Shown in pieces: positions 2,290 to 55,868 of a stretch of 64,000 nucleotides of DNA. The DNA is from Schmidtea nova (taxonomy: Eukaryota): positions 384,090,001 to 384,154,000 of the forward strand of contig CM097882.1 in assembly GCA_044892505.1 (NCBI GenBank), in the 5' to 3' direction. The notes under the pieces are model-generated. The model did no database searches, had not been told where the DNA came from, and saw only the letters and a list, made by a program, of their open reading frames with translations. How positions within the stretch are numbered: the stretch's first letter is position 1; each line of letters starts with the position of its first letter. The position numbers and the translations under genes were made by a program.

Positions 2290-2694
2290 ACAGGAGTTTT
2301 ATCTGATTCTGATATAAATTGTTGGGCTAGCCAAAACACAGAATAAAAACCCTGAATAAGATAAGTAAAAACATAATAAAAATAGAAAAAATTAACAACA
2401 AACCCACAGTGTTCAGCAATCCGAATCATCGAGATCTGAACAATAATAATAATAACAATAGATGAACAATAAATCATCAGAAAACCTACCCAAGCAAGAC
2501 GCGTGAGTCAACGCGAATAACCAAAAAATGACAGCGCGTAGGTGTACCGCGCGTTAATATAATGAAAATCTAAAATAAATCGGTCAGTACAACTATAAAC
2601 ACAAAGCAATACAAGAAAATACCTGACCAAACACGCAGAAAAATAATACCGTTACAAATAAAATACACAACGCATATGAGAGAAAAGGACGATT

Positions 2695-2862
2695 CTGATT
2701 GGTTGATGACCAATCGAAATTACTATATAAGCAGCAGCCAAAATCAGTACAGAGAGTCATTTTTTACCAAGTATTATTTTCTGTTACGAACTGATAACTT
2801 GCGACAAGTGTAATTCTGTAAAACCTTGTGATCAAGAATTGAAATCGAAATAAAAGGTACGT
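2695..2862 (+). promoter_or_regulatory. Promoter (CCAAT, TATA, Inr), then AATAAA abutting a splice donor
   Basis: CTGATTGG, CCAAT, TATATAA at 2724-2730, TCAGT at ~2744, and GAAATAAAAG|GTACG with donor GT at 2857. The same order recurs at 53284-53435. Confidence 0.6.
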
Positions 2863-3744
2863 TGATTTGAATTATATTATGATTATAAACCCTCATGATT
2901 AAACTTAATAAGGCTGTCCCGAAGGTCATCCGATCTGACGGGATTCTCGGGCCTCTCAGCTCAACACATTTTCATGTGAGGGCTGATGCGGCGACCGAAT
3001 AAGTTTTCTAAACTTAGTAGGGGGGGTACACATAGGCATTGTTATTCTACCCTGTTGACATCGTAGTACAGTACGCAGACAGCCAGGTTTGGGGAATGAT
3101 CATCAAAGTGTAGCGGAGTCATCTCAGTGGAAGGAGACAATGAGTACCCCAGAAAGTCAAGGCCTTGAAACAAGTATACGTACGACATATAAACAAATTG
3201 AATAACGTTTAGATGTAGAGGAGTATCATTTCTACTTCATTAGACATAACATAACTATGAAATATTCCGAGATAAAGATGACCGCAAAGGAGCATTGTGT
3301 CGTAGGGGGTCAATTACCAATAATTAAGGTATCAATCTGAAAAACCCTACGCCCAAAAATATCACTTGTCTTGAGAGTAACGCCTGATATGACCAGTATT
3401 GATTACAATAATAAATGATGCAGCGTGAGATGATGATAACTGAGACGTTGAAGTCGATCACTAGTATGAATGCTACTACGCGACATTGTAAACGGTGAAT
3501 ATTGATGAGCCAACACATAACCAACAAATGTGAGTGGGCCTACCACTGAATATAATAAGATTACGTATTAACTAAACCATTAGTTTAAAAAATGGATAAC
3601 CAAAAGATGAATGAGATGCAAGTAAGCAAAATTTTTACTAATGAAATATGAGATAATGATGTGATAATGGGATGATTTGGATGATGGATGCATGCGGGAT
3701 TGATAACCCAGACAAGACTGAGATAATTTGATACTATAATTCAG

Positions 3745-4290
3745 ATGACGTCGAAAGGAAGAGTACACCCCCGGCGAGGTCAGCCACGGAAGCCAACATT
3801 TTTAGATGCCGATCCAATTCCAGAACTGATTAGGAGGTCCGCAGGACGCATCTTTGGGCGTAGATGCGGCATCACGTGGATGCAAACGTACGATCGGTGA
3901 CATCCTCATTCGATATACGGATTCGGTGGGAAGGAGACCCATCGTGGCCGGTGTTCCCGGGCGTTCTGACCAAGGGACGGAGAAGATGGTTTATTCAATT
4001 TGAGGACGAGCAGGCCAGGCCACGGTGGATACTTTCATTTAGCCCCATATCTGGCCAGGAGCTCCGTCAGTTGGGTTACATCCTATTGGATCAACCGAGG
4101 TGCATCCGCACCGGCGAATTCCAACCCTATCTCAACGCTCCCGGAAATCGGGATATGAATCAACATCAGTAGAGAGATGGAATACGATTGTGGGAGGTGT
4201 TCACCTTCCAGGATGGACTCTGTTGGAATCCGTGCCCAGAGATCTATCAAGAAGATGGAAAAGGATTGGACAATCGGGATTGTGATCAAG
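3745..4290 (+). pseudogene. ORF1 of the 3-kb element (unknown protein; frameshifted, with stops)
   Basis: Acceptor TTCAG|ATG at 3745. Peptides RIRWEGDPSWP and LGYILLDQPRCIRTGEFQPYLNAPGNRD match copy 2 (RIRWEGDPVWP; LGYTFIGPLRCIKTGKVRPYINSPGHRD). Confidence 0.65.
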
Positions 4291-4558
4291 ATCTAGTCGA
4301 ATTCCTATGAATATCTGCAACATTGTCATAATAAAGTGCCTGCGTTTCATATCTAATAAAGAAATGATTTGTCGATTGTGTTATTAATTGAATGCATGTG
4401 GTGAAAATGTGTAACGTCGTTAGACTGATTGGTGACCTTAGGGGTAGAACCTATCTACCGAAAACTGGCAACTATGATGATACATAAAGGGGGAAATGTG
4501 CGACATATGCGGAACCATGGATATAGAGAAAATACTAATCTGCCCACTTTTCCTTTAG

Positions 4559-5119
4559 ATGCATGCAGTAAAGAGTCGTGACTACCAGGAAGAGGCAAGG
4601 GAATCTCGGAAGCGAGCAAAAGCCCTAGAAGCCCGGCTAAGACAGTTGGATACCGAGTTACGGTTAATCAAGACGACTTGGTTTCACCCGGAATGAGTAA
4701 AGGAAATCCAGCAAGCCAGATACCGGGCTGAAAGAACAATAGATGAGCAGGCGCGAGAAACTGCCGCTATCAAGTTAGAATTGAGCAACTACTTGCGAGC
4801 CTCCACCAAAGATTTTATTGAACAACAGTTGAGACCGCTCATCCGCACGAGTACGTTTGATCGATAGGTGAAGGCAACCAGCATCTCAATGGGAGTGCAG
4901 ACCGACGCAAACCCAAACCCGAGTCCAGACACTTTGGAAAAGGTTCGGCAACCAGAAGGATCTAAACGCACCAAAAGAAGGAATCGATTAGGTGCCAAGA
5001 GGCGTCGGGAAAGGCGAGCCTATGCCGAGAAGCTGCGGATAGAAGTCAATTTTTTAAGCGGCTTAACCGAGAGACAATTATTGGATGTGATGAATCCTGA
5101 AGTGTTATTACCCAAATAA
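4559..5119 (+). pseudogene. ORF2 of the 3-kb element: coiled coil + Arg-rich motif + Leu-rich tail (186 aa, two premature stops)
   Basis: CTAAT...CCTTTAG|ATG at 4559; one frame to TAA at 5119 with two internal stops. EGSKRTKRRNRLGAKRRRERRAYAE is identical in copy 2. Confidence 0.75.
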
Positions 5120-5519
5120 ATGTTCTACGTAACAAATTGTGTTTTTATGAATGAATGTGGAACGAATGATGATCTAATTAAACGAATAACTAAATCTAAA
5201 TCATTTATGCCAAAGGACATGGGGAATATCAATCAACCCTAGGCAGTGAATTTAATTAAATGAGAAGGGACCGGAATAAAACGACACATACCTTCTATCG
5301 GTAGTGGTGGACCCGTGAATAAATAAGGGAATAGTAGCCGCAAGGTTGCTCACCTGCCTTATCATTTCACAACGTTGATACAGTTCCAAGATGATGAGTA
5401 GTTAGAGATACATCATGGGTATTAGCGGGGGAAAGCGTTTTTATGTTGGCGAGATCACCCTAACCAATAATATCAAGTATGATCTCGGTTGAAATATTCG
5501 ACCAACAAACCAGCAAAAT

Positions 5520-6270: not shown

Positions 6271-6666
6271 ATGAACTTCATTGCATTGATTCAAACCAAC
6301 GAAGAAAATGACATCACTGAAATACCAAATGGACATTATGCCCATTTACCTGTCAAAAACGCGGAAAATTTTTTCGATCCAAACAATGGCGAAGGTACGA
6401 TCGGTGACATCCTCATTCGATATACGGATTCGGTGGGAAGGAGACAATGTAGAATGTTGCTAAGCAGAAAAACAAAAAAATGGGAAACTCATCGAAGTCT
6501 TCTAGACTCTTATCTCTGTGAATTCGTATGGAGACAGAAACAAAGGAAATGATTTGTTTGACTGTATATTGCGCGATTTAGTATTGTATAATCCGTCAAA
6601 GTAAATTATGTTTTATATAATATTCAATAAGGGGGGTTTAGAAGAGCCTGTTATTTTCTTCGAACC
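6271..6666 (+). mobile_element. Merlin/IS1016 (ISXO2-like) transposase C-terminal fragment with probable right end
   Basis: H.PV.N.ENFFDP..G and LLDSYLCEFVWR fit the ISXO2-type C-terminal motif. The end at 6666 (GTTATTTTCTTCGAACC) is TIR-like. Confidence 0.65.
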
Positions 6667-35888: not shown

Positions 35889-36932
35889 TGTTAGGGTTCG
35901 AGATCAAGGGATCTCGGGTTTTTGTAATTAAATATTATAAGTAAATAAATAAATATAAATAGCAATTAAGAATTACTATAAATAGATAGATAATAATTAT
36001 AGTAATAAATAAATAGATAAATAGTAATAGTAAATAAATAATTACTATAAATAAATATAGATTAAATATAGTAATAATTAAATAGTATATAATAAATATA
36101 GTAATAAATAAATACATGATAAATTTAAATAATAATAATAAGTTATATATAGTAATAATAAATTACTTTCAATAAAAATATAATAATTATAAATATTTTT
36201 AAAGGCAGTGGTAAAACACCACCGCAGTTTTAAGAGATGATGATGAGCGTAGTAGTGTGTAAACCTACTATCGTTCAAATTGTATATATACTGATTACAA
36301 AATCAGTTGAAAAAAACATAATTTTTACAGAAGTGAATTTTAGAACATAAGTGTTTACAGAATAGTGAATTTTAGTTCAAAGTTAAATTTGCGTGGAGAG
36401 AATAATTTTACAGAATTTCATTTGTGATAATTTTCCGAAATTGGAATAACCTTTGAGCAAATTATTAGCTGGTAAATTTTCTAGTTTGATTTAATTCTAT
36501 AAATCGATCACGGGGAAATAGTTATATTACTATTTTTCCTCTTCAGTAAAGTCGTTAAATAATAAATTATTAGAAGGGAAATTATTAGGTCACAGTGACA
36601 ACCATTTCTGGGTTGTCACTATCGCGATTAAACTACCGGGAAACCCCTCATCTTGTGTCCTTTCCTTTAGTCGGAGCTGTTGAGCCTTTTAGGTCCAGCT
36701 TTCGTTCTTAAACTCTGAGGACGGTTTGTATAACCGATTTTCTAACTTTTGCTTTGCAGCTATTTTTATTATATTGTACATTGATATACATATTTCACAA
36801 TACATTTTATTAAAAGGAATTAGTTCTTGTTTTCTTTACACACAACCTAAAACATATATTTTATTTATAACTATATAAGCGGATTATCGTTTGGAGTCCG
36901 ATAATCAAATCAAATCAAATCAAATCAAATCA

Positions 36933-36995
<63 letters not shown>

Positions 36996-37031
36996 CTGTG
37001 TTCGTCGTAAACCACTGATACGAACCGAACA
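35889..37031 (+). repeat. 5' LTR (1,143 bp)
   Basis: Identical to 49867-50999 in a line-by-line comparison except one substitution (GTAAAC/GTAATC) and 10 extra nt of (TA)n. Contains a TATATAAG at ~36872, a 10-bp hairpin at 36595-36621, (TCAAA)n and (TA)n. Confidence 0.97.
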
Positions 37032-37034
37032 TTT

Positions 37035-37052
37035 TGGTGAGCCCGACGTGAT
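37035..37052 (+). promoter_or_regulatory. PBS, tRNA-Trp
   Basis: TGGTGAGCCCGACGTGAT, 3 nt after the LTR; 17/18 match to the established tRNA-Trp PBS. Confidence 0.9.
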
Positions 37053-37123
37053 ACAATTATTATCAGTGGGCATATTGTTATATATACAAAATAGCTCCTA
37101 AAAAGACAAAAGTTGTGGAGGAC

Positions 37124-38002
37124 ATGGCTGAAGAGAATAATGTTTTTGCTAGATATCCCGCTTTACCTGTCAAGGCATTTAGCGGAGATCCAGGGGAATT
37201 TCCGGAGTTTATGTCAGAGTATTATCAGATGGCAAAGGCCTATGGGTATCCAGATGCAATAATGATACAAAGACTGCCAATTTACCTTAAGGGTATGGCA
37301 AGGGAAAACTACAATGATATTATGGCGTTACCAACAGCAGATAAACCAGGTACATGGGAAAAGATGAGAGAATCACTAACAGCTAGAATATTACCGGGAG
37401 ATTCAAGCAGAATTTTCCGACAACAATTTTATCATAGAAAACAGAATGCCAATGAGCATGTAGGAGAATTTTCTTATCAATTATTGTTACTAGCAGAAAG
37501 AGCATTTGGGCTCAGAACTACCTGGAATGATGCAACTAAAGCTATGGTTAAAGACCAATTATTAGCTGGATTCACAAATGTAATGAGAAATGCATTGATT
37601 CTCCACACGGGAGATGATTTTTGGGAATTAACCAGAAAAGCTGTCGTAATCGAAAGCAGCTTAGAAAAGGCTACCTCATTTATGGTAAATAATGAGAAGC
37701 CAGCAATTGAATGTTTTAACTGCCATAAGAAGGGGCATATATCAAAAGATTGCCACAGTAAGAAGGTAGCTGATACTCGTAGGAGTATTCAGTGTACTAA
37801 ATGTGGTATAAATAATCATAGTGTTGAGAACTGTAGAGTCACGAACTTGCAGTGTGATAAATGCAAACGCAGAGGGCATGTGGCTTCCGTTTGTAGAGTT
37901 AGGAATCTCCCCACGAATGGGAATTTTAATATTAAAAGGGATGATGTTAATTCATCAGGAAAGATAAATGCCACGGATGTGGAAAATTCGGGCATATTCT
38001 GA
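37124..38002 (+). CDS. Gag (capsid + three CCHC knuckles; a fourth knuckle lies in the -1 frame at 37969-38010)
   Basis: CFNCHKKGHISKDC, CTKCGINNHSVENC and CDKCKRRGHVASVC; capsid-like helical region. Confidence 0.93.
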   Translation: MAEENNVFARYPALPVKAFSGDPGEFPEFMSEYYQMAKAYGYPDAIMIQRLPIYLKGMARENYNDIMALPTADKPGTWEKMRESLTARILPGDSSRIFRQQFYHRKQNANEHVGEFSYQLLLLAERAFGLRTTWNDATKAMVKDQLLAGFTNVMRNALILHTGDDFWELTRKAVVIESSLEKATSFMVNNEKPAIECFNCHKKGHISKDCHSKKVADTRRSIQCTKCGINNHSVENCRVTNLQCDKCKRRGHVASVCRVRNLPTNGNFNIKRDDVNSSGKINATDVENSGIF

Positions 38003-41000
38003 GGTCGTGTCCTCAAAATCAGAGTAATAATATGAATAGTAGGACTACCAATAGTGGTAATGTCAGCAAGCCAAAAACTACGTTCATGGTCAATCACGAT
38101 AAAGAATTGACGTATTTGCAACAACTGGAAATGGAAATCCAGGAGGAGAAAAATCGATTAGCACGGCTAATGGATCGAGATGATACAGTTTTTATGATTT
38201 CAGCTGAGAAAAATCATGCTCACACAGATGAGCGAGGAACAGTTTTGATGAATACAATTGAAGAAATAAATGAGACTCCCACAGTTGGGCAAGAGACAGT
38301 TTTTATGATTTCAGCTGAGAAAAATCATGCTCACATGGATGGGCGAGGAACAGTTATAATGAATCCCATTGAGGAAAGCGATGATGCTCACACAGTTGGG
38401 CAAGGAACAGTTTTGATGATTTCAGCTGAGAAAAATCATGATGCTTACACAGATGAGCAAGGAAATAGTGAACCCATGGATTCCAGCAGCGAGAATCATG
38501 AGGTAATAGAATCAGAGACAAATTCTGATAATGATGACGAACCCAGTATGAGTACCATACTGAGCGAGTTCGACCAGGCTTTGTTCAAGGAAACAAAGGC
38601 CAAGAAAGGGTCAGATACCCTAGCAAAATGTTTTAAACTGGTGGATTCCAGATATGAGTATCAGCAGAGACTGACTAGAGAATTAGAGAAATTATCACAA
38701 GGTGATATCAAGAACAGTGAAATTGGAAAGATATTACAATTAATATCTCAGGTCGAAGATGATCCAAGGTATCATAGCGACATACATAAAATCCTACGAA
38801 AGATAGGAACTGCAATGGAGCATGAATGGGATCTTCAGGATTCGCATTTAAACATAAAACTTCCTCAGGAGCAGGAGTTTAACATCGACATGAATGTAAG
38901 ATGTCGAACAGACAAGTTGTCAGATACAATGATGAAATTGAAACATAATAGATATGATTTTTATTTATATGGAGAAAAGTTAGTAGTTGGGGAAACACTA
39001 CTACAAAATGGTGTATTACCAGGAAGGGTAACGAAACTCACAACGAAACTGACAGGAATATCGGTCCCAGTAGTGGATCAAGACAGTGTGTTTCTACTCA
39101 CACAAATGGAAATTGCACAGTTGGAGGAAGTCCAACAAATAGAGCAACGCCTGAAGATAGAGTTGCAGAAATCTCCGAGGGATGGAGAAACAATCAAGGA
39201 AATATTAGACTGGATGTTGGTATTGCGCATACCAGTAGAATCATTGGAGAGTATAATTCCTATTCTACTACCTGTAGTAAAGGAAACTAGTTCATTTCAA
39301 ACGGAAATAAAAATGTTAATGAGAAAAAATGGAACAGCAATACGTCATCAAGCACATCGACAAGGCATGATAACTTTAGACATTCGAATATCGGGAAAAG
39401 AACCCATGACGAGGTTATATCGTTGTTTTAGCAAAGTAATAACTTTGAGAAAAGATTTAATAGATACTGGGCAGACTACCGGTATATTCTTGATTATGAT
39501 TCATGGAGGGCAAGTGGATGATGATGAATATTTAGTAGATGTGGGATGTCTACCATTTGAAACGACAACAGTAGCAATCATTCCCGTAGAGCCACCTGAA
39601 TCTCAATGGTCAGCATTACGGTTACCAGATGAAATGGTCACTGGTAATGTTGAAACACAACCATTTAATGTAGATATCGATGCCGATAATCACGGAGAAG
39701 AGGAAATCAGACTCAATAATGAGGAAACTAACGTGGGAGCTTCAACTTCTCGGGCGGTAGAAACTATCAGGCCAGAATGGCAGACAAAGAAAGATAGGCG
39801 AGGAAGGCCTAGGAAAGATCAAATGAAACCTCCACCAACGGAGCAATTAAACCAAGAAACCATTAAACAGGTTCAGATGAAAACCCTGTCAGGAATAGCC
39901 AGGGATGTTGATATGAGAGACGAAGGTGTACATATACCAGAAAAATCTCTGACATGGAAGAGATTAAAACAGATCATAGGAATATTAAAGCCGGAATGGC
40001 AGATTACTCGGATTAAAGGAATTCAAGTGGATAAAGTGACACAGTCAATCGCGAAGACGATGAGGAGATTACCTAGAGGGGTACCGCAAAACGAGATACA
40101 GAGTATGTTAGAGACACTCATACAAGATGGGTTATCTAAAGGAAAAATAGTGACAGCATTATCTATGTTGATTCAAGATGCTTTATCCCGCACAGGCAAT
40201 GAGAAGAAACTTATTAATCGAGAAATAGACCAGATCACGGAGATAACGGAGCATTATCTTGGAACGTGGATGAGTGAAAATAACTTCTGGGAAGAGGAGA
40301 AACATAAACCACGATATGAATTTGTGGAAGAGGCTATGAATAACAACCACCTCGGAAATGGAGAAATGGGGAATATGACGAATATGATATTAATGTTTTT
40401 AGTAATGATGGGGATTATGAAACAGACAAACACAATGACAGCGTTTGATTGCAGTGATCCAAAGTTAGCTCGGATATATTCGCTCGTAGATGCAATTGAG
40501 TGCAAAGAGGCATATCCAGAGAAAGTCCAAACAGGAGAAAAGGTCGAATACTATGTCTACCAAGAAAGTGAATTCTTCAGAACTAAGATAAGAGAATGTA
40601 GAGTCCAAAGAGCGACGTTTGAATATTATTGTGGTTCACACAGCTATACAGCTTTTCTATCAGCCACTCTAATACCTAGACCAGTTAACATATTGCCAGA
40701 AGATTGTCTAGATGCCTTTCGAAAAGGTACTTTAAGAATCGATAACGAGGTAACCATCGCCGCGGAAGTAGTAAAAACACTGGGAGTAACAATTACACGA
40801 GGAGGATCAATCGGATCAGATGGTACCTGTACGGGAAGAAAGAAAACTCGCGGATCGGAGTGTGTAAGTTTTGTCGTAGATATTGAGGACTATTCAATCG
40901 AATTAAGAGAATACGAAGGGACGTTCGATGTATTATCAGGTAGATTAATGGCACACCCTCAGTGCCTTGCGAAATTTGGAAGCTGCAGAACAGGGGTCAT

Positions 41001-43308
41001 TACATTATTATACGATCAAATACTAGACCATTGCGAATTGTCATTACTAAAGAAAATTAATTTCCATAAGTTGAACGGGACAAAGTATCGAGATTTACCC
41101 AAAAGAGAAAGAATTTGGGATAAAGAAAAGACGTTGAAAAGGATCAACAAACAGCAAAAAGAGGATATTAGTGAGGAAATCACACCTCTAGTATTAGTAT
41201 CAGAAGATAAGAAAGATGCAATCAGATTTGTCAGAAAAGATAAGAAGACAAAATGCGGAAAAGTGGTGTACGAGACCAACTATAAAGGATTATATTTGTC
41301 AAAAACATTTATCCAAAAAGCCAAGAATATTCACAGCCAGGATATCAAAATCACGAACTATATAAATAATAAAATAGATTATTTATATCATGATCTGCAA
41401 GGACAAATGCAGGAAATGTATCAGGAAGTAATACTCAATGATTGCAAACTAAATCGCGAAATAGTTCGAAATCGATTAGCGATATCAATCGTGAATCCGG
41501 ATCTAGTGACACCTATGTTGCTAGAAGATGGAATGTTTGGCAGAATTATGGGGGAAGCTATATACAGCTATCAATGTCAACCCATAGAGGTACAATTAAC
41601 ACGGTATAATGAATGTACTCTAGAATTACCAGTGTCATATCAAAACAAAATACGATTTGTAATGCCAGTAACGAGGAGACTTTTGGATGAAAAACAAAAG
41701 CCTCAACCTTCAATTTGCAATCCAGCAATATCGCCGTTATACAAGGTAAATGATAGATGGATCTCATTACCTGACCGAAAACCATCTAATAGAAAGGTGG
41801 AAACATTGGAAGTCACGAAACTCGAGGAAAACATGGAATTTAAATCACTCGATGAATTATCACAAGGAGGAATTTACACTCCAGCAGACATTGAGGAGGC
41901 AAGACAGACATTGCTATTCCCTCAAGTAAGAGAAAGAGGTATCACAGAAATCATAAGAACAATTTACCAAGCAAACGAAATGAGACCAGATTACAATTTA
42001 TTATTTGGTCCAGATCATTATAAAGAAGCAGCTAAAAATGTGATGATGAAAATATGGGGAAGGTTTACCAATTTTGGTATTTTCGTGGCAGGCTGCTCAG
42101 GAATATATGCAATATTCGTAATTCTAAAGTTAATAATAACACAATTAATTTCCACATACAGTATATTCAAAATCGGTGGATGGTCTTGGAAGTTGATACT
42201 AGGATTATGTCCTATGTGTGCGGAATTTGCATTGTTTAAACACCATCGTAAAGAAATAAAGACAATCAAACAGAGAAGCTTGGTAAAACACGAGATTATT
42301 GGAATCGAAATGGAGGGTAATACAAGTTATCGGGACGATAACAATTCGGAAGGAGGAGGTAATGGAGACTCTCTTAATACAGTTCAGAGGCAAAGTAGAA
42401 GTCGAAAAAGAAACTACAATAAAAAACCGAATCATCAATTAAGGAAAATGAAATATCGGGATTATCAACCACCTTACGAAGCGACAAAACAGATTTTCGA
42501 CAAAAGTATGATTTCAGAAGATGAATACGATAGTGCAGACCAGAAATTTGCAATCAATACAGCATCGCCTAGATTGAAAAGAAGCCCAAGATATATGCAA
42601 TTGCCATATCTTAGAAGTTTACCAACAGCGCCAAAGGGGGAATCGCCAGAGTTTCAAAAGACATCAGGAGAAGGCAAGCCAAGTTATGCTTTAACTTTAC
42701 CAAGGAACAAAATTTACACTTCTAAACATCAACAAATTCTCGACAAAGATGCTCGAGAGACAGGTAAAAGCATATCATTATCGTTAGAAAATGAAGGGAA
42801 ACTGTATCCTATCGAGTCGTTAGAAGCAATAAAAGCTAAATTCAAGGAATATAATCCAAAATTGAGTGATACCGAACAAGATGAGGCAGAGAAATTCAGA
42901 GCAAATACCATCGGGATAACGCATGCTACTATTTTGATGGCAAATGGGGTGAACTTGGATAAGAAACCCATGATAAAGATAAAAATAAACAGACACACAG
43001 TTAATGCAGTGATAGATTCAGGAGCCGACGGCACTATCATAGAGGCAACACTATTAAATCAAAAAGAATTGGAATCAATGGAAACCTCTAGAGTTTCGCT
43101 AACAGGTGCTACAGGCACATCATTGAATATTATTGGTACTCTAGCTTGTAACATCAAGCTATGTGACCAAGAATTTCGTCATGATATTATAGTCATGAGA
43201 ATTTGTCCAGTAGAATGTCTACTAGGAATGGATCTTTTAAGAAGATTAAAAGGAGTTGTGTTCGATTGTGCTACCGGATTGTTAGTTAGATCAATCGGTA
43301 AGAAATGA
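37951..43308 (+). CDS. Polyprotein part 2: 4th CCHC - 37-aa repeats - helical/ubiquitin-like modules - signal peptide - gB/chuvirus-type glycoprotein - TM - aspartic protease
   Basis: The frame is open from 37951 (CHGCGKFGHILRSC). Glycoprotein motifs: AFDC, YYCGSHS, YINNKIDYLY, GEAIYSYQC, LPV, P.TR, GGIY. TM at ~42060-42240. Protease AVIDSGADGT (Asp at 43015) with LLGMDLL. Confidence 0.85.
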   Translation, partial: FIRKDKCHGCGKFGHILRSCPQNQSNNMNSRTTNSGNVSKPKTTFMVNHDKELTYLQQLEMEIQEEKNRLARLMDRDDTVFMISAEKNHAHTDERGTVLMNTIEEINETPTVGQETVFMISAEKNHAHMDGRGTVIMNPIEESDDAHTVGQGTVLMISAEKNHDAYTDEQGNSEPMDSSSENHEVIESETNSDNDDEPSMSTILSEFDQALFKETKAKKGSDTLAKCFKLVDSRYEYQQRLTRELEKLSQGDIKNSEIGKILQLISQVEDDPRYHSDIHKILRKIGTAMEHEWDLQDSHLNIKLPQEQEFNIDMNVRCRTDKLSDTMMKLKHNRYDFYLYGEKLVVGETLLQNGVLPGRVTKLTTKLTGISVPVVDQDSVFLLTQMEIAQLEEVQQIEQRLKIELQKSPRDGETIKEILDWMLVLRIPVESLESIIPILLPVVKETSSFQTEIKMLMRKNGTAIRHQAHRQGMITLDIRISGKEPMTRLYRCFSKVITLRKDLIDTGQTTGIFLIMIHGGQVDDDEYLVDVGCLPFETTTVAIIPVEPPESQWSALRLPDEMVTGNVETQPFNVDIDADNHGEEEIRLNNEETNVGASTSRAVETIRPEWQTKKDRRGRPRKDQMKPPPTEQLNQETIKQVQMKTLSGIARDVDMRDEGVHIPEKSLTWKRLKQIIGILKPEWQITRIKGIQVDKVTQSIAKTMRRLPRGVPQNEIQSMLETLIQDGLSKGKIVTALSMLIQDALSRTGNEKKLINREIDQITEITEHYLGTWMSENNFWEEEKHKPRYEFVEEAMNNNHLGNGEMGNMTNMILMFLVMMGIMKQTNTMTAFDCSDPKLARIYSLVDAIECKEAYPEKVQTGEKVEYYVYQESEFFRTKIRECRVQRATFEYYCGSHSYTAFLSATLIPRPVNILPEDCLDAFRKGTLRIDNEVTIAAEVVKTLGVTITRGGSIGSDGTCTGRKKTRGSECVSFVVDIEDYSIELREYEGTFDVLSGRLMAHPQCLAKFGSCRTGVITLLYDQILDHCELSLLKKINFHKLNGTKYRDLPKRERIWDKEKTLKRINKQQKEDISEEITPLVLVSEDKKDAIRFVRKDKKTKCGKVVYETNYKGLYLSKTFIQKAKNIHSQDIKITNYINNKIDYLYHDLQGQMQEMYQEVILNDCKLNREIVRNRLAISIVNPDLVTPMLLEDGMFGRIMGEAIYSYQCQPIEVQLTRYNECTLELPVSYQNKIRFVMPVTRRLLDEKQKPQPSICNPAISPLYKVNDRWISLPDRKPSNRKVETLEVTKLEENMEFKSLDELSQGGIYTPADIEEARQTLLFPQVRERGITEIIRTIYQANEMRPDYNLLFGPDHYKEAAKNVMMKIWGRFTNFGIFVAGCSGIYAIFVILKLIITQLISTYSIFKIGGWSWKLILGLCPMCAEFALFKHHRKEIKTIKQRSLVKHEIIGIEMEGNTSYRDDNNSEGGGNGDSLNTVQRQSRSRKRNYNKKPNHQLRKMKYRDYQPPYEATKQIFDKSMISEDEYDSADQKFAINTASPRLKRSPRYMQLPYLRSLPTAPKGESPEFQKTSGEGKPSYALTLPRNKIYTSKHQQILDKDARETGKSISLSLENEGKLYPIESLEAIKAKFKEYNPKLSDTEQDEAEKFRANTIGITHATILMANGVNLDKKPMIKIKINRHTVNAVIDSGADGTIIEATLLNQKELESMETSRVSLTGATGTSLNIIGTLACNIKLCDQEFRHDIIVMRICPVECLLGMDLLRRLKGVVFDCATGLLVRSIGKK

Positions 43309-46300
43309 AAAGTTTATAATGATGATACAGTTTTCATCGATCATACAATGATAATACCACCCAGAGCAGAAACAGTATGTTTCGTGTCCACTAGCGAACA
43401 GTGGGAAGGAGAAGTTGTATTCGAACCAGATGAAAGGTTCTCAGCAAAATATAATCTACCAATTACGCATAGCGTTGGTAAAGTTGAAAATGGCAGAATA
43501 CCAATTCGGGTAGCCAATTTAGATATAAAACCATTAAAATTGTATCCAGATACAAGAGTAGGGAGAGTATCAAAGTCTGATCAATTACCGAATGGAGGAT
43601 CTGTCCTGACAATAAAGGCAGAAAATAGAGAACCAGACATTGAGTACTATGATGCGCCAACGGCAAATAGTAAAGCTCTTTCACGAAGAGAGAATATCCA
43701 AGTCAACATGTTATTAAGAAAATATGATCAGGTATTCGCCAAGCACGAATATGATTTGGGAAAGACGAACTTGTTGGAACATGAAATTGTTCTTAACAAT
43801 ACGAAACCAATAAAACTGAGACCGTATCGAATTCCGTTTAGCTTGGAAGAACCTGTCGATAAGCAGGTAAAACTGATGTTAAAACATAACATCATCAGGC
43901 ATAGTAAATCACCATACCAGTCACCAATGATAGTAGTGGCAAAAAAGGATGGAACAGTACGACTATGCAACGATTATCGAATGGTAAACGAAGCAACTTG
44001 CAAGGATAGTCACCCATTACCATTACTGGATTACATCTACGGTCGTATGAGAAATTCAAAATATTTCTCAGTATTGGATGCTCAGAAGGGGTTTTACCAA
44101 ATCAAGTTAAAAGAGGAGACAATACCAATTACGGCTTTTTCTACAAGCCTTGGACACTTCGAATATACAGTAATGCCATTTGGTCTCACAGGAGCGCCGG
44201 CAACGTTTCAAAGAGCAATGAATCTAATGTTAATGGATGTTCATCATGCAATGGTATAAATAGATGACATCATAGTATTTTCTCCAGATTTGGAAAAACA
44301 TTTAGAACATTTAGAGGACGTATTCAAAAGGTTAATTAATGCAAATCTTAAGGTAAAACCATCAAAATGTAAATGGGCCGAATCAGAAGTAGTCTATGTC
44401 GGTCACATTATCTCGAAGGATGGAGTAAAACCAGATCCAGCAAATGTTGAGAAAGCAAAGAATTTTCCAGAGCCAAAGACAGTCAAACATATTAAAGGGT
44501 TTTTGGGCTTAGTGGGATATTACAGGAAGTTCATCAGGAACTTTTCGGCAATAGCATTTCCTTTAACACAATTAGAGGGCAAAAATGTCAAATTTGTATG
44601 GGGAAAAGAGAAACAGGAAGCATTTGATATGCTAAAGAGGATGCTCGTGGAACCTCCTATATTACGGTTTCCAGATTTTGAGAAACAATTTTTGGTCATG
44701 ACAGACGCCAGCACTCGGGGTATTGGTGCTGTGTTAGGTCAGAGAGATGACCTAGGAGACGAATACGCCATAGCGTATGCTAGCAGAGGATTAAAACCAC
44801 ATGAAAAGAATTACGCAGTTATCGAATTAGAAGCATTAGCAATTGTGTATGCTATACACCAATTCAGGACATATTTATGGGGTCGAAAGATCATTGTGTA
44901 TACGGATCATAGACCATTACAGTGGTTAACAAAGCATACTATGGATACATCAAAATTGGTTAGATGGGCACTGATCTTGCAGCCATACGACATCGAAATA
45001 CATTACCGAAAAGGACACCAAAATGGGAATGCAGATGCATTTTCTCGAATGGACCAGGGTGATGAAGCAGAAGATGTCAAAGAAGGAAGATTAGAAGGAA
45101 CAATCTTCGCACTTACAAGAGAAGCAAACAGACTCGCGGATTTAATGGCAGCACAACAATCGGATGAAGAGATAAACCAAATCAGACAGGCTTTAGAAGC
45201 AAAGTTCATACCGACGGAATTTAATAAATATTGGGAGAAAAATCGAGACAAATTTATCCTTGAAGAAGGATTAGTCAAATATGTGGATGTAAGGGATAAT
45301 GTCAAAATGGTCCCTAAGAAATATCGCGAAGCTTTGATGTTACAATATCATGATGGAGCACTGGGAGGGCATTTGTCTGCCAGGAAAACATTGTCAAGGT
45401 TGAAGCAGAAATATTTCTGGCCGACAATCAAACAAGACATACAGGAATGGTGTCAGACATGTAAGATCTGTATCACCAGGAGAAATACGGGGAAGAAACC
45501 GCATGTGCCAATGAAACCAATGCCAGTACCATCCACACCGATGGAAATGACGGCAATGGATGTTTTAGGGCCATTCAAAGAATCAAATAGTGGTAACAAA
45601 TACATATTAGTATTTTGCGATTACTTGACAAAATGACCGGAGGCTTATCCGATACCGAATCACAAGGCAGATACGATAGCCAGGATTTTCGTAGAGCAAA
45701 TCGTTTTTAGGTATGGAGTACCTACAAAACTACTAACAGATAGAGGAGCAGATTTCATGAGTAATCTGTTAAAAGGAATAAATGATTATTTCGACATTTT
45801 AAAATTGAATACCTCTCCATACCATCCACAAACAGACGGATTGGTAGAGAGATTTAACGGAACGCTTGCAAATATGCTAGCATCATACGTAAATTCAGGG
45901 CAAACGGATTGGGATATACATATCCCATCATGCCTATTCGCATATAGAAATGCTGTTCATGAGGGTACGGGACAGACGCCGTTCTATCTCATGTATTTAA
46001 GGCAAAGTAAAATGCCTATAGATTTGTTGTTCTTCCCAAAAGCAACACAGTATCTAGACCAAGAAAATTACCTCATGGAAATGAGAGAAAGAATGCAAGA
46101 AGCATGGACAAAAGCCGGTCTTAGTATAAAATTCAGCCAGGAAGCGTCGAAAGATTATCATGATAAGAAAGCCAAAGGACATGGCATGTTAGTTGGAGAC
46201 AAGGTGATGTTGGAAAGCCATTATAATAAAAAGGGCTTATCACCAAAATTAATGAGAAACTTCAAAGGACCGTATGAGGTTTTGAGAACCACAGACACAA

Positions 46301-47391
46301 ATTTAATCTTGCAATTAGTAGCAAATAGAAAAGCTGAACCAATAATGGTACATGCTAACAGATGCAAGAAAGTTGCGGTCACAGAGAAAGATCAGGTTAA
46401 GAAAAGGGAGGATAAAGGGTCAGAACCAGTCTCAGACCGATATCCATTACGATCAAGGGGCGTGCCAAAATCAGTTACATTTTTGGTAATAATAAGTTGC
46501 CTCATATCCTGTGTAAAGACATTTGTTCCCACAGCGGTTCAAATCCAAGATCTCGCATTCAGAAGATCTTTTCAGGAATTTCGGATAATATCATTAGCTG
46601 AAAATGATACCAAATTCAAGTTCTCGTTTTGCGAACGACGTTGTTTCCATTTTACATTGGATTCAAACACAAGAGTGAAAGTCATAAAGGACTTACGAGC
46701 AGAAAAGGAATATTTATTAGATATACTTGTTCAACATTTTATGTTTGGACGATGGTCAGATTTTTCAAAGTCACAATGGAAGCTGAAGACAGCGGATTTC
46801 AAAAGGAAAGTTAGAATAAATATCCAACAAGGTATGATTACCTTCAGCCAACCAAAACAAGGAGTGGATAGGGTAAAGATAGAAATCCATTCCGACAAGG
46901 AAATAGTACAAGAATTGTGGCTAAATGAAGATATTGAGAAACAAAATCTCAAGTGGAACAGCTCAGTGGAGTGGGAAGCTCATATCACTTATATGAATAA
47001 TAAACAAAAGCCCGGAGTCGATGAATGGAATGAGGTATTTTATGAAGTAATCTCTTTGAAATTACCTCAATCATCGACGACAACGAAATCAGTTACATCC
47101 TTGATACGGAAAGAAAGTTACGTCATTCATCCGGCAATATGGCAGAGATTGAAAGGATTGAAAATGGTAAAACCAACAGTATCAACAGAAAGCTATATTA
47201 AAAGTTGTCAGTGTGAAATTAATGAAGTAAACCCCATTACTCACTTGGGAAAATTACCCGTTGGGGTATGGATTATTACGTCAGCAGTATTAGCTATGAT
47301 CACTACATTGATAGCAATGGGAGTTTGGATGAAACTATTCTTCAGCCAGGCTATTGAGTCGGTTGATGGGATTATGATGACGAGATTATGA
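43309..47391 (+). pseudogene. Pol (RT, RNase H, integrase with HHCC and GPY) plus a C-terminal membrane protein; same frame throughout, interrupted by stops at 43306, 44257 and 45634
   Basis: RLCNDYR, LDAQKGFYQI, V*IDD (YIDD), TDASTRGIG, YTDHRPL, HDGALGGH..CQTC, LTDRGADF, NGLVERFN and KGPY. Confidence 0.95.
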
Positions 47392-47577
47392 CAATTACAG
47401 ATAAAATCACATATTTGTATTTATATATATATTAAAATCTATAATCTTGTTGAGCTCCGAGTAGCATTAACTTACAGCATAAGTAGATCCCGTAAATCGA
47501 GATTTATGCATTTCTTTTTAGCCAATATTGGCATATCAGTATATCTGATATTAACGTTAATTATTTTTCTTTCAGAT

Positions 47578-49542
47578 ATGAAGCATCAAGTGTCACAATA
47601 CAAGCAGCGTTATAGCACTATCGATGTGCAAACAGTACAGAAGGAAAAATTGATTTATCGAAACATCGAAAAAGCGATATCCGCAGAAGCACGGAAAGGT
47701 CGTCGCTATTGGTATTACGGGCACTGCACCGGCATCCCGAACAATTTTAAGTTTCTTGGATCACCTAAGAGACAAATGTGCATAGTCACAATTACCAGCC
47801 GGGAGAACACCCGGTTGACTGAACACATGGCGGAATTTAACAGATCAACATTTACTCACCATCTCCTGATTCACGCGATCAACAAACCCTTTACAATCTT
47901 CATGGCAGGTGCCACGGGACCCATCCTACTTCAACCAGAATCAACTCTAGAAATTAGTAACGGAGATGGCAGAGAAAAGAATATCTCCATCCAATGTGAC
48001 GGATATAATACTATTGTGGTATTAGAGATTTTGGAACCCAGCAAGGCAGTGCAATCATTGTGGAAAAATGAACCTGCCTGGACCTATAATGTGAATGAGA
48101 ACGATCTCAAGTCATTCAAATCCTTTGTTCGGATGAATTTGCACCCCAATCAAGAAGATAAATTGTCAATATTTGTTGCAGCGCATTACGCAACCTTGCG
48201 AGATTATTTAAAGCCAGCTTTGGTGGCTGTTTCGATAGCAAACTACTGTGGTGATTTAATACTAAACACGGTGGTTACACCCAGAAACCAGGTCAAACAT
48301 TACCAATCGCACGCGCATGGTATGACCGAAAAAGAAATCATCGGACAATTTGACGGAGAGGATTGCGCAGACCGTATTAGAAAATTATGTGATGGGAAAA
48401 TCCTAATAGTTCTCCAAGTCAACGACTTCTTGGAAGCAGTCCAGTTACATCCTCAACGAGTTTTGGGCATTAGGGAACTAGGAGCAGCAAAATGCCTGGA
48501 AGCGAGAGAACTAAAGAAATGTAACGGACATTATCGACTCGCGTATTTATCAAAGTCAATTCTCGAAAAGGAAGAACTAAACCGTTCAGATCTGAAAACG
48601 GAAAACGACGTGGAAACGACACGTAATATTTACCTTAAACTGAGAGAAGTTTGGGTAGATGACATTACCCCAGGTAATCTTAGTGGGACGATTACATCAG
48701 AAGTCAAAATGGTTCATACAATACAGCCGCAAGAAACGAGTAAAAGGAAAGCTATTGAGAGCTTACCCCAGGAACAGCCATTATCAACCAAATTGCAAAA
48801 GATAGTTAAGGAAGAATCACTATCCCCTCCAGCTATATCCTTAGCTGATGAAGACGATTACGCCACCTGTGAAAGCGAGGGTGAGGAGCAAACAGAGATG
48901 CGTTTAACTTTACACGGAGACAGCCGTACAATTACAAAGATCGTGTCAGAAAATCCACCAAAGAAAGAGAACAAGCTCTTGGAAAAAGTTACTAAGACTT
49001 TTCAAAAACTGACTTCAGTGGAGAAGTCGTCCCCAAAGAAAAGTCAAGAACCTGTTGTAAGGTTACAAGATCTAAAGATCAAAAAGAAAGTACCAAACCC
49101 TATCTCGACGGAAGACAAAGACTTAATCGAAACAGCATTCGTTCCTCCCGATATGGAACAGATTCCTGAGGTTAAGGGCGAACCTATCATTATAAGAGAA
49201 AGGGATTTCGTTGGAACGGGGAATTCAGCAAAGACACCCCAGGATTTGGATAACGAAGACCCTAGTTTTTGGCAGCGACCAGAAAGGAATTGGGTATCTC
49301 GGATAAAAGAATACGACGGGAAACCGGTACACCAATCATCAGTTTCAAACTTCCCTTACTATGGCGTATTGGAGGCCAACGGAAAATCATACGTGATTTC
49401 GTCTTTGGTATATAAGGAAGTCGAAACACGTGAAACATTGGTGGTCAGCTATAGACCAGATATAGTGGAAGACCGTATCAAGAACGAACAAGCGCATATT
49501 CGCAAGAGAGCAGCTCAAAACCTATTCGCAAAGGATAACTAG
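47578..49542 (+). CDS. Accessory ORF3 (~654 aa), probably spliced: degenerate AlkB-like + degenerate ISG20/REX4-like exonuclease + low-complexity tail
   Basis: Strong acceptor TTATTTTTCTTTCAG|ATATG. The exonuclease-like block VAVSIANYCGDLILNTVVTPRNQVKHYQSHAHGMTEKEI...IRKLCDGKILI parallels ISG20. The AlkB-like call is weaker. Confidence 0.65.
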   Translation: MKHQVSQYKQRYSTIDVQTVQKEKLIYRNIEKAISAEARKGRRYWYYGHCTGIPNNFKFLGSPKRQMCIVTITSRENTRLTEHMAEFNRSTFTHHLLIHAINKPFTIFMAGATGPILLQPESTLEISNGDGREKNISIQCDGYNTIVVLEILEPSKAVQSLWKNEPAWTYNVNENDLKSFKSFVRMNLHPNQEDKLSIFVAAHYATLRDYLKPALVAVSIANYCGDLILNTVVTPRNQVKHYQSHAHGMTEKEIIGQFDGEDCADRIRKLCDGKILIVLQVNDFLEAVQLHPQRVLGIRELGAAKCLEARELKKCNGHYRLAYLSKSILEKEELNRSDLKTENDVETTRNIYLKLREVWVDDITPGNLSGTITSEVKMVHTIQPQETSKRKAIESLPQEQPLSTKLQKIVKEESLSPPAISLADEDDYATCESEGEEQTEMRLTLHGDSRTITKIVSENPPKKENKLLEKVTKTFQKLTSVEKSSPKKSQEPVVRLQDLKIKKKVPNPISTEDKDLIETAFVPPDMEQIPEVKGEPIIIRERDFVGTGNSAKTPQDLDNEDPSFWQRPERNWVSRIKEYDGKPVHQSSVSNFPYYGVLEANGKSYVISSLVYKEVETRETLVVSYRPDIVEDRIKNEQAHIRKRAAQNLFAKDN

Positions 49543-49831
49543 CATTTCTGCTACGTTCAATCCAAGGTCTAGCAATAAGCTATGACAACTATCAATCAAA
49601 CAATTAGCATTTCGGCTATGTAATCAACAATCCAACTCTTACAGACAGTTATTATTTGATATCGATTGTGATCAACATTACTTATGTATTATGTGTTTTA
49701 TGAGACTCATTTGTTTTTATGCGATTTATTTTAATTTTTATTGACCACGTGCATTTAATGTATATATATGCATGTGTTGTTATTTTATTTTTATTTTATG
49801 GCTGCGTAACCTTCTTGTCTTTTCCGCTTTA

Positions 49832-49866
49832 ATTTTCGGGACGAAAATCTTGTTAGGGGGAAGACA
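49832..49866 (+). promoter_or_regulatory. GGA-loop hairpin and polypurine tract before the 3' LTR
   Basis: ATTTTCG-GGA-CGAAAAT, then AGGGGGAAGACA immediately before TGTTAGGG. Confidence 0.85.
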
Positions 49867-50910
49867 TGTTAGGGTTCGAGATCAAGGGATCTCGGGTTTT
49901 TGTAATTAAATATTATAAGTAAATAAATAAATATAAATAGCAATTAAGAATTACTATAAATAGATAGATAATAATTATAGTAATAAATAAATAGATAAAT
50001 AGTAATAGTAAATAAATAATTACTATAAATAAATATAGATTAAATATAGTAATAATTAAATAGTATATAATAAATATAGTAATAAATAAATACATGATAA
50101 ATTTAAATAATAATAATAAGTTATATATAGTAATAATAAATTACTTTCAATAAAAATATAATAATTATAAATATTTTTAAAGGCAGTGGTAAAACACCAC
50201 CGCAGTTTTAAGAGATGATGATGAGCGTAGTAGTGTGTAAACCTACTATCGTTCAAATTGTATATATACTGATTACAAAATCAGTTGAAAAAAACATAAT
50301 TTTTACAGAAGTGAATTTTAGAACATAAGTGTTTACAGAATAGTGAATTTTAGTTCAAAGTTAAATTTGCGTGGAGAGAATAATTTTACAGAATTTCATT
50401 TGTGATAATTTTCCGAAATTGGAATAACCTTTGAGCAAATTATTAGCTGGTAAATTTTCTAGTTTGATTTAATTCTATAAATCGATCACGGGGAAATAGT
50501 TATATTACTATTTTTCCTCTTCAGTAAAGTCGTTAAATAATAAATTATTAGAAGGGAAATTATTAGGTCACAGTGACAACCATTTCTGGGTTGTCACTAT
50601 CGCGATTAAACTACCGGGAAACCCCTCATCTTGTGTCCTTTCCTTTAGTCGGAGCTGTTGAGCCTTTTAGGTCCAGCTTTCGTTCTTAAACTCTGAGGAC
50701 GGTTTGTATAACCGATTTTCTAACTTTTGCTTTGCAGCTATTTTTATTATATTGTACATTGATATACATATTTCACAATACATTTTATTAAAAGGAATTA
50801 GTTCTTGTTTTCTTTACACACAACCTAAAACATATATTTTATTTATAACTATATAAGCGGATTATCGTTTGGAGTCCGATAATCAAATCAAATCAAATCA
50901 AATCAAATCA

Positions 50911-50963
<53 letters not shown>

Positions 50964-50999
50964 CTGTGTTCGTCGTAATCCACTGATACGAACCGAACA
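49867..50999 (+). repeat. 3' LTR (1,133 bp)
   Basis: Direct repeat of 35889-37031. Confidence 0.97.
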
Positions 51000-52927: not shown

Positions 52928-54177
52928 TGTTGGGCCAGGCAAATCAGAGAGAATTTAAAAAGAAAACTAAAATCAATATAATAAATAACATAGAAACAAC
53001 GACCAAATAAATTTACTAAGCACTAAGTATTTAGCAATATGCAGCAGAAGCATAAAGTAATGAAGCATGAATCAAAATAGATAATAACATTAGAAACTCA
53101 CCCATGCGGAATACCAATAACTTGAAAATCTGACAAGGCGGGGGCAGATATCACCGAGAATCTACAATAAAACAAATATTAACAAAAGATTCACGGATGA
53201 TTAAACAACAACTTACCGAATTAGGTACACGAAAAAAAACATTAAAAATGAAATGCAAACAATATCTTCACGCCCACTAAATTCTGATTGGCTAGCCGGC
53301 AACACAATTCAGTTTAAATACTGCAGTCAAATTCAGTAAGTCAGTCATTTATCACCAGTCATTTTTACCAAGTGTAAATTTTCACTGAGAGTCATTTATT
53401 CTACTTTGTGGAATCAAATCGAAATAAAAGGTACGGTTATATTCTTATGTTATTATTATAAACCCTCATGCTTAAAATTCATAAGATTGTCCCGAAGGTC
53501 ATACGATCTGACGGGATCTCGGCCTCTCAGCGCAACACATTCTTATGTGAGGGCTGATGCGGCGAGAGAGATAAGCGACTAAACGGGGGAAGGGTGCACA
53601 TAGACATAAGTAAATTCTGTAGTAACTGAATGATATGAGGATATGTTCAGGGGTAGTAAATACCTATCAGCTCACATGTTAATTATTCCATCTCCGATTT
53701 GCATAGACAGTATTGTAGAGTAAAAGGCTGCATGCACCAGTAATAGGTAAACCCATACTGAAATCAGTCGTATTCCAAGTATATGAGAGAAATGATAGCC
53801 CATAATAAGCCGAAAAAAATTTGCAAATCAGTGTTAGACAAATTTAATCTGTGATCACCGATAAATCGCATAAGTCAAGCAAATCAGCGCACTGAAGTGA
53901 CGTATACTAGTCTAAAAGTATTGACAAAAACATAGTGTGGTACCGTGTAGGCCGACGTACAATCATCTTTAAAGTAATAACTGTTCACAGATCAGCAATT
54001 TAAAAATCATCGGTGCAATGTAATATCAACAACAATAAATTCTGAGTAAGATTCAATTCACTTCTGAATGTATGGATGTATGATAAGTATGAAAAGGAGG
54101 GATGAAAAAAATGAGGATGATTGAGGATTGAATGAAGAATGTCAGCGTTAAATTATATATTACCTAATTTGCAGCTC

Positions 54178-54725
54178 ATGCCGAAAAGAACTCAGACCAA
54201 GTACCACTGCCAGCCGACAGTGATCAACGTCCTAAATGTCACAACGAGTGACGATATTCCAGTAGAAATCTACAACACAGCTGAGAGGCATATGCGAGCT
54301 TGGAGACGCCGACATGTAAATATGAGAGTGTCCGTCGGGGAGACTCTCTACCGATATCGAATCAGATGGGAAGGTGACCCTGTCTGGCCGGAGATGAAAG
54401 AGGACCATGCCAAGGCTTCACGAGGTGGTTCGTCCATGAAAAGGTCCGTTGGATGCTAACCTTCATCAAAATTCCAATTGGTATTTTCCAACGGCTTGGC
54501 TACACCTTTATTGGCCCTCTAAGATGCATTAAGACAGGGAAAGTGCGACCCTACATCAACTCTCCAGGGCATCGCGACCTGCATCAAGACACATGGGATC
54601 CGAAAACAACCCTACGGGAAGTATTCGTATACAGGGACGAATTATGCTGGATTCCCTGTCCATATTTCTATCACCCGGATGGAACCGGCAAAGAAAACCG
54701 AACCTGCGATCAAGACTGGATTTAA
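54178..54725 (+). pseudogene. ORF1 of the 3-kb element, copy 2 (one frameshift)
   Basis: CTAATTTGCAG|CTCATG; homologous to 3745-4290. Confidence 0.7.
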
Positions 54726-54948
54726 ACCTGACAATCGAATGAAATTTTATGAGATAAAAATAAATTAATAAAATTTTGTGTCTCTTGTTGTTAAATGCAT
54801 GAAAGCTGACAAACTGAGGTCGAAGTATGATGAATAAGAAATGTGATTGTAAAGGTCAAGGGTGGGGAGTGAGAAACAAAAATGAATTCGAGGAATTTAT
54901 TACCCTGAACCTTAGAGTGAACCCAATAATCGACCAAATCCTTTTTAG

Positions 54949-55484
54949 ATGGACTCGACTACTAGCCACCCCAACGAGATACGCTCATTGCAACAACGTA
55001 TCAGAGCATTCAAGAGCCTCGTGAAACGACAGGAGGTAGAAATTAACGAATTGCGGACGACCTAGTTCAGCCCGGAACGGGTCAAGGACATCCAGAAAGG
55101 CCGATACCGGGTGGAGCGGGCTCTAGAGGATCAGACCCGGGAAGTTGCAGCCACTAAGCTGGAACTCAATAACTATTTGAGAGCCTCCACTTTGAGAGTC
55201 CATTGATTCGGACGAGTACCTTCAATCGTTGGGTCAAGTCGGTTGGTGTGTCCAACGGGACACAAACCGATGGAGGTACTTACAGCACACGAGAAATACC
55301 AAGACAATTTTCCAAAACCGAGGGCTCGAAACGCACTAAGCGAAGGAACCGCCTGGGCGCTAAGAGGCGTCGAGAAAGACGGGCGTATGCAGAAAGAATT
55401 GGGATCGAAGTGGATCTCCTGAGTGGATTAACGAAAAGCAACTGCTGGATGTCATCAACCCTACTGTATTGTTGGATTAAATAA
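54949..55484 (+). pseudogene. ORF2 of the 3-kb element, copy 2 (stop plus deletion frameshift)
   Basis: CCTTTTTAG|ATG; KLELNNYLRAST, LIRTSTFNRW and EGSKRTKRRNRLGAKRRRERRAYAE are shared with copy 1. Confidence 0.75.
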
Positions 55485-55868
55485 ATGTATTGTTGTTAAC
55501 GTGTATCTTTAAGAATGAATGGGGAATGAATGATAATTTAAATAACTGAATGATTGAGTATATCCAATTCATTCAAAAGCTAACGGACATGAGGAATATA
55601 AATCAACCCTAGACGGTGAATTAATTAAATGAGAGGGGACCGGGATAAAACCACACAGACCTTCTATCGGTAGTGGTGGACCCGTAAATAATTAAGGGAA
55701 TCGTAGCCGCAAGGTTGCTCACTTGCCTTATCATTTCACAACGTTGATACAGTTAGGGATACATCATGGGTATCAGCGGGGCAAGCGTTTTTATGTTGGC
55801 GAGATTACCCTAACTAATAACATCACTATAATCTCTGTTGAAAAATCCGACCAACAAACCAGCACAAT

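Follow-up and report, generated by a model that had tools for sequence, protein, structure and literature searches.

A two-gene cassette with conserved splice sites in LTRs of a giant Burro-like Gypsy element of the planarian Schmidtea nova

Protein-coding sequence within an LTR is known from MMTV sag and HIV nef, which lie in the U3 region of the 3' LTR and are expressed by splicing. In the element described here, by contrast, two genes (ORF A and ORF B) occupy the part of the LTR between the TATA box and the primer-binding site (PBS). Rev-like proteins, which unite a coiled coil, an Arg-rich motif (ARM) and an NES, are known in lentiviruses, deltaretroviruses and some betaretroviruses (PMC5568270; PMC10746203). 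As far as the available text of these papers goes, ORF B resembles Rev, Rex, Rec and Rem in being a small protein, predicted to come from a spliced mRNA, with a coiled coil, an Arg-rich motif and a hydrophobic tail, and the candidate RNA stems reported below share the intronic position of the structured RNA in those systems. It differs from them in having no homology, in being encoded wholly within the LTR by a gene that has a polyA signal of its own, in carrying an LC8-type motif and in that its NES is putative. The CERV protein of Cer1, a Gypsy element of Caenorhabditis elegans, is required for the export of unspliced genomic RNA (PMC10309623), so that for the LTR elements of invertebrates the idea of Rev-like export is not new. 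In the available text of that paper CERV is, like ORF B, an accessory protein that an invertebrate Gypsy element encodes and that has a coiled-coil part; its mRNA is spliced, as is predicted for ORF B.

The element as a whole resembles Burro/GYPSM1 of dugesiid planarians. In the available text of a review (PMC6431247), the shared features are the size of ~29 kb, the polyprotein of ~5,000-5,700 aa, the presence of thousands of copies, a CCHC gag, a mononegavirus-type fusion env between gag and protease, and RT, RNase H, integrase, ankyrin, RING and MATH/TRAF domains; the differences are that TRAF is found here in a separate ORF after pol and that BIR and Bcl-2 domains were not detected by Pfam. 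The same text of the review names no gene inside the LTR. The available parts of the literature, including PMC6431247, PMC8532177, PMC11410931 and PMC13524379, gave us no account of genes within Burro LTRs (Grohme 2018 may mention them), and such genes appear not to have been described before.

The window, i.e. the whole stretch of 64,000 nt that was analysed, comes from contig CM097882.1 of Schmidtea nova; all coordinates are those of the window and all LTR features lie on its plus strand. A preliminary description had drawn attention to an Arg-rich motif that occurs twice in it. The motif is ordinary in appearance, but following it up revealed an unusual layout: the LTR of a known giant element harbours a cassette that has two genes and, by its anatomy, is spliced. 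ORF A, the LC8-type motif, the identity with Burro and the CERV precedent had been overlooked.

Solo LTRs and full-length copies

On sequence grounds, both motif-bearing copies in the window are solo LTRs, now dead, that derive from a giant Gypsy element of the Burro-like kind. Copy 1 (2320..5515, 3196 bp, TG..CA) is flanked by the target duplication AAAT (2316-2319 and 5516-5519), and copy 2 (52928..55864, 2937 bp), which is inserted within pol of another Gypsy element, by CAAT (52924-52927 and 55865-55868). The motif-bearing units of ~3 kb start with TGTTGGG, end with CCAGCA and have a 4-bp target duplication, seen in 11 of the 22 such LTR units examined. A search of the S. nova genome itself returned 5321 candidates, and many of the best 150 of these have an open 185-aa frame. 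In one close relative of copy 2 the LTR is followed by a PBS, and the genome contains 777 junctions of LTR end and PBS (control, 0). Complete young elements were present in three of the five regions fetched around LTR-PBS sites or env matches. They measure 29.4-29.7 kb and have LTRs of 3130-3296 bp that are 99.9% identical, 4-bp duplications and a PBS that we take to be of the tRNA-Pro type. The PBS, the PPT and the paired LTRs rule out a DNA-transposon origin. Four close pairs of ORF B matches did not prove to be two-LTR elements, and a search with a guessed PPT pattern gave 0 matches.

The full elements contain a RING ORF (Pfam E 5e-9), a polyprotein of 5,085-5,685 aa, a TRAF-like ORF (MATH, E 3e-27) and two ORFs without a family. 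A polyprotein frame of 5087 aa includes zf-CCHC (396-412), Monjiviricetes_fusion (2035-2374) and protease (2560-2650), followed by RT, RNase H, integrase and ankyrins. There was no Pfam match to BIR or Bcl-2-like domains in the element proteins at E 0.01 or 0.1; a Bcl-2-like stretch before env is a by-eye impression only. Upstream of one 3' LTR (L081:7675-9472) lie two more ORFs, one of 400 aa and then one of 176 aa that includes a hydrophobic stretch; both are kept in both clades and have no Pfam family.

A distant clade has no blastn match to the window LTRs, yet carries both genes in the same places, as recognized by profile (E 4e-30 for ORF B and 9e-5 for ORF A, among 80 ORFs plus reversed decoys). 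This clade is young and numerous: its best 150 copies all scored, and 146 of these 150 are without a stop. An older LTR, of a third clade and with diverged ORF A and ORF B, sits inside the leader of an element of the window type (L049:7486-9761). The window also holds a young Gypsy element of another kind (35889-51007; LTRs of 1151 bp, 98.9% identical) with a single 11.6-kb frame interrupted by four stops, in which a fusion glycoprotein (PF24664, E 2e-89) lies in frame between gag and protease and the final 716 aa have no Pfam family. A gag-env-pol order has been described for flatworms, according to the available text of PMC13524379.

Layout and splicing of the LTR

The order within the LTR is promoter, donor, ORF A (~190-210 aa), ORF B (~185 aa), a conserved block and the LTR end. 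CCAAT and TATA boxes lie near +380 to +410 of each LTR (2697..2731 in copy 1, with CCAAT in reverse) and are conserved in relatives; transcription probably starts ~25-30 nt downstream of TATA. A donor reading AATAAAAG/GT follows ~100 nt after the boxes. In copy 1 it is preceded by AATAAA (2849..2858 with the donor AAG/GT, the GT at 2857-2858), and copy 2 has AATAAA and donor at 53423..53432. ORF A of copy 1 (3745..4310) has a frameshift and a stop and is followed by AATAAA at 4330 and 4355; in copy 2 it is broken as well (54178..54725). ORF B lies at 4559..5119 in copy 1, where AATAAA (5115-5120) overlaps the stop, and at 54949..55480, again broken, in copy 2, with AATAAA at 55480-55485. The acceptor AG abuts the ATG of both genes in copy 1 and, more generally, a pyrimidine-rich YAG lies within a few bases of both ATGs. 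The RING, TRAF and later ORFs likewise have a YAG near the ATG, which suggests that one promoter and one donor serve many acceptors. One LTR copy carries, within its intron 1, an inserted antisense frame of 460 codons (L036:3852-5231).

AATAAA follows the ORF B stop in 49 of 50 copies (within 13 nt in 43 of them) and the ORF A stop in 23 of 40. The donor-proximal AATAAA is present in the main clade and absent in the distant one, where the AATAAA at the ORF B stop is kept. Thus, R may be longer than 2 kb, and the R/U5 border takes a presumed position.

A genome search for the junction of the donor with the ORF A acceptor (acceptor A) gave six matches, compared with four in the control; five of the six were checked (L207 was left out) and one of these five proved to be an LTR. 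This sequence, L211, is a 3' LTR behind the PPT of its element; compared with its closest relative it lacks a 927-nt intron, exactly from GT to AG, whereas intron 2 is kept. Such a precise loss is best explained by reverse transcription of spliced RNA, and the donor and acceptor A are used splice sites. For the ORF B acceptor (acceptor B), three narrow genome searches gave no junction (one in the control), two unrelated matches and none, respectively. The earlier proposal that the ORF B mRNA is spliced has the support of a conserved acceptor and of a donor that was used in L211, but the junction to acceptor B was not found in these searches. Among the joints listed in four sequencing runs, none falls at the predicted introns; the runs are apparently of DNA and hence uninformative on expression.

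Intron 1 is present in all 33 other LTRs with a donor and an intact ORF A. Since introns are normally kept in integrated copies, the packaged RNA is normally unspliced and passes working splice sites and polyA signals. It must evade splicing and early polyadenylation yet exit the nucleus, which is the same problem that Rev, Rex and CERV solve.

ORF A and ORF B: conservation, motifs and predicted structure

The preliminary description took the synonymous differences between the two copies of the 25-aa motif (4955..5029 and 55320..55394) as a sign of selection on the protein. Translation of both copies gives the same residues at both places, with 17 of the 25 codons different, and every one of the 18 base changes between them is indeed synonymous. 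Synonymous changes make up 57 of the 225 single changes possible in the motif, and when 18 random changes were simulated, 0 of 200,000 sets proved wholly synonymous under each of two mutation models. Across genomic copies, the comparison suggested at the time, dN/dS is ~0.09-0.13 for ORF B (45 of 55 sequences, ten being left out) and ~0.17-0.20 for ORF A (35 of 44, with nine frameshifted or distant ones left out); these values are pairwise Nei-Gojobori medians for pairs with pS of 0.1-0.7, and the pairs are non-independent. Low dN/dS and the full elements bear out the earlier view that ORF B is under purifying selection and serves an invertebrate LTR element as an accessory protein. The conservation is not unique to the motif, because the coiled coil and the tail are equally constrained (pN/pS 0.04-0.19 for all three), while the linker is unconstrained (0.40-0.63). 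ORF B of copy 1 is broken by two premature stops, and that of copy 2 by stops and frameshifts that leave its tail out of frame; thus, selection acted in active ancestral lineages and not on these copies.

The coiled coil N-terminal of the motif and the hydrophobic tail C-terminal of it, both noted earlier, are present. The predicted structure of ORF B (pLDDT 74, pTM 0.34) has helices at 9-41, 44-91 and 97-113, a disordered linker at 114-133 (pLDDT <50), a basic helix at 143-158 and a short helix at 171-178. Its residues 9-91 are modelled with pLDDT 86-96, and their best weak sequence matches are coiled coils. The fold search returned generic coiled coils only and barely covered the tail; a Rho_N/HeH-like fold was considered for the tail and had no Pfam support. 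No homologue of ORF B was found by single sequence or alignment among near-length sequences or in metagenome and viral contigs, PDB sequence searches gave none for either ORF, and a search of the ESM Atlas found nothing (best 0.79).

ORF A is predicted to be an alpha/beta protein (pLDDT 71.6, pTM 0.66). Its model had no match in a fold search (best Z 2.7), which does not show a new fold, although ORF A may have an unknown one. A single-sequence search among near-length sequences gave no homologue, and the only match of its profile among 1.84 billion representatives, an Ig-repeat surface protein, was judged spurious. ORF A is likely to be a partner in the ORF B circuit. A 57-bp piece of it (3882-3938) recurs with 96% identity at 6389-6445, 870 bp outside the LTR, in what appears by eye to be a transposase remnant.

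The preliminary description had itself named a bZIP-like DNA binder as the contrary case, and the motif does score better against bZIP_1 than against REV, yet below the cut-off in both. The bZIP_1 profile, the commonest Pfam match, aligns with the motif itself (residues 138-169 on profile positions 10-42) in 8 of 33 members, with a best E of 2.3e-4 and 21.6 bits against a cut-off of 27.6; REV matched 5 of 33, with a best E of 0.087 and, for a re-run member, 12.9 bits against a cut-off of 22. The N-x7-R spacing with Ala at +4 that main-clade ORF B has in common with bZIP (PF00170) is found in 43 of 55 copies, and at this level the likeness is real. ORF B could then be a DNA-binding transactivator of its own LTR, comparable to foamy virus Tas and to SKN-1-type basic regions, in which a zipperless bZIP-type basic helix reads a spaced TGACA repeat in U3 and dimerization takes place via the distant N-terminal coiled coil and LC8 instead of a zipper. 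A candidate DNA site starting with TGACA is present at 2529..2552 (its second half is degenerate in copy 1), and the consensus in most relatives is TGACA-N13-T[GA]TCA with a GGGCGG core; the exact N13 spacing occurs in 33 of 51 U3 regions, that is in 33 of 47 from the main clade and 0 of 4 from the distant clade, whose U3 is without TGAC and whose ORF B has K/Q at the N and A positions. However, the bZIP coiled coil follows the basic region whereas that of ORF B precedes it: no leucine zipper with its heptads comes after the motif, as the helix ends at 158 and a glycine breaks it. Moreover, N and A are not retained in a large intact clade and their loss together with the U3 motif is a single event, which is no correlation; the HIV Rev ARM also has RRNR, and the U3 motif may serve host factors. 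On balance we hold a transactivator to be unlikely, although a serious competitor.

The tails were compared with the known NES class patterns. The Rev-type class 1b fits 1 of 45 tails and classes 1c/1d fit 40 of 45 (they are absent in the distant clade), whereas the reversed 1b pattern, of a sort that is common, fits all 45.

Within the otherwise variable linker, [TVI]QT[DE] is kept by 45 of the 55 copies, and additional old clades have it too (VQTD at 4895-4906 and TQTD at 55260-55271 in the window), with IGTD instead of TQT in the distant clade. By its sequence and its place it is a putative LC8-type motif; TQT within a disordered region is the LC8 anchor but is insufficient alone, and many TQT peptides do not bind (PMC6607443, available text). 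Full-length genes of the LC8 family that have no introns form tandem clusters in the S. nova genome (L159-L173) and number at least 20. The conserved TQT motif and the long coiled coil would also suit a cytoplasmic adaptor that ties genomic RNA or particles to dynein or assembly sites, and the most conserved RNA block of the LTR adjoins the PBS, the usual location of packaging signals. Gag, however, already has CCHC knuckles, and the basic motif of ORF B fits KR-x9-KRRR, which we take to be the pattern of a bipartite NLS. As LC8 is, in addition, mostly a dimerizer unrelated to dynein (PMC6607443, available text), such an adaptor seems quite improbable.

The cassette might instead serve as a counter-defence against host silencing, for example by decoying a piRNA silencing complex that depends on LC8. 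The element has other domains that meddle with the host (RING, TRAF and ankyrin), an LC8-dimerized complex silences transposons in flies (PMC7861614) and Burro is under PIWI control (PMC8532177), in both cases according to the available text. Neither protein has homology to any silencing factor, though, and this explanation, which we rate as very improbable, would leave the RNA stems and the need for intron retention unaccounted for.

Conserved RNA structures and the proposed role of ORF B

The hairpin that had been pointed out at 2917-3000 coincides with a covarying structure within intron 1, consisting of two stem-loops with purine-rich internal loops (2918..2992; ~53490-53565, downstream of the donor, in copy 2), which is a candidate protein-binding RNA element. 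In an alignment of 30 of 46 sequences, 98.6% of the cells are paired, compared with 24-51% in slid controls, and five pairs have two-sided changes; most of the changes separate two subfamilies and so count as few events. The stems were not recognized in the distant clade.

Bulged purine-rich stems so near the inferred start are also what a Tat-like protein might use: ORF B would bind them on nascent RNA, ~170-250 nt past the start, and boost elongation or block the donor-proximal polyA signal, and AATAAA does abut the donor in the main clade; in the available text of PMC3694450, foamy viruses resolve such a conflict between LTR polyA signal and donor by U1 binding and RNA structure. The proximal signal is absent in the distant clade, however, and ORF B has no visible Cys-rich domain of the cyclin T1 type. 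U1 alone can also account for suppression, and we find a Tat-like role improbable.

The second structure is a block at 5268..5435, between the ORF B polyA signal and the LTR end, that adjoins the PBS in full elements. No other part of the LTR is as conserved. In 18 sequences from three to four clades, seven of the 14 pairs in its two helices have two-sided changes, and the slid controls are 25-47% paired. Its position beyond the ORF B polyA signal and beside the PBS means that it could be a response element, a packaging signal or a priming signal. Rfam gave no match in the window, and a hammerhead ribozyme was considered and did not fit. In ORF A, codons 139-149 (L083:5005-5033) form a hairpin of 9 bp whose internal loop consists of purines, and synonymous change is suppressed there. 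Its signal reached ≤5% of recoded controls in 4 of 14 tested sequences, all from the young subfamily, and we regard the hairpin as a feature of that subfamily alone.

By analogy with the known systems, ORF B is likely to be a nuclear, dimeric, RNA-binding regulator of the RNA of its own element. The role that we favour, with a probability a little short of even, is that of an RNA-level switch by which the element would pass from making short, spliced transcripts of the LTR to making unspliced genomic RNA of full length, with the logic of Rev and CERV and without homology to them. With promoter motifs, a single donor, a pair of acceptors and polyA signals all upstream of the PBS, and with splice sites in use at least for the donor and acceptor A, any LTR, solo ones included, would by default make short A and B mRNAs. 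ORF B would dimerize via its coiled coil, aided by host LC8 at the TQT motif, go to the nucleus via its basic motif and bind a stem-loop present only on unspliced or read-through RNA, either the intron-1 stems or the block before the PBS. Binding would promote read-through and export, and so let the genomic RNA of integrated copies, which normally retain their introns, dodge splicing and early polyadenylation. Of the Rev-like reading in the preliminary description, the conserved accessory gene, the splice anatomy and the covarying intronic hairpin have held; RNA binding, shuttling, export and the NES, whose Rev-type class fits a single tail, are putative. Against an RNA-level switch stands the lack of homology to Rev, Rex, Rec or CERV, and the conserved stems could act in packaging or priming or serve a host factor (CTE-like), none of which calls for a viral protein. 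More tentatively, and with the balance of probability against it, the two regulatory genes may form a complete early unit in an R/U5 of ~2.8 kb, in which ORF B is an independently evolved ARM-type analogue of Rev that activates genome-length RNA.

Such a layout would amount to an LTR with an unusually long R/U5, and because both genes lie between TATA and PBS, we predict that a solo LTR forms a complete unit on its own. Solo LTRs, usually deemed non-coding remnants, may thus express proteins, and those of ORF A and ORF B have no detected relatives; if this is true, thousands of solo LTRs would supply regulators in trans genome-wide. They would do so in a planarian, a stem-cell model in which Burro is a main PIWI target. 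CERV is the one tested case of complex-retrovirus regulation in an invertebrate LTR element, and a second, unrelated Arg-rich solution within the LTR would show repeated invention of that logic.
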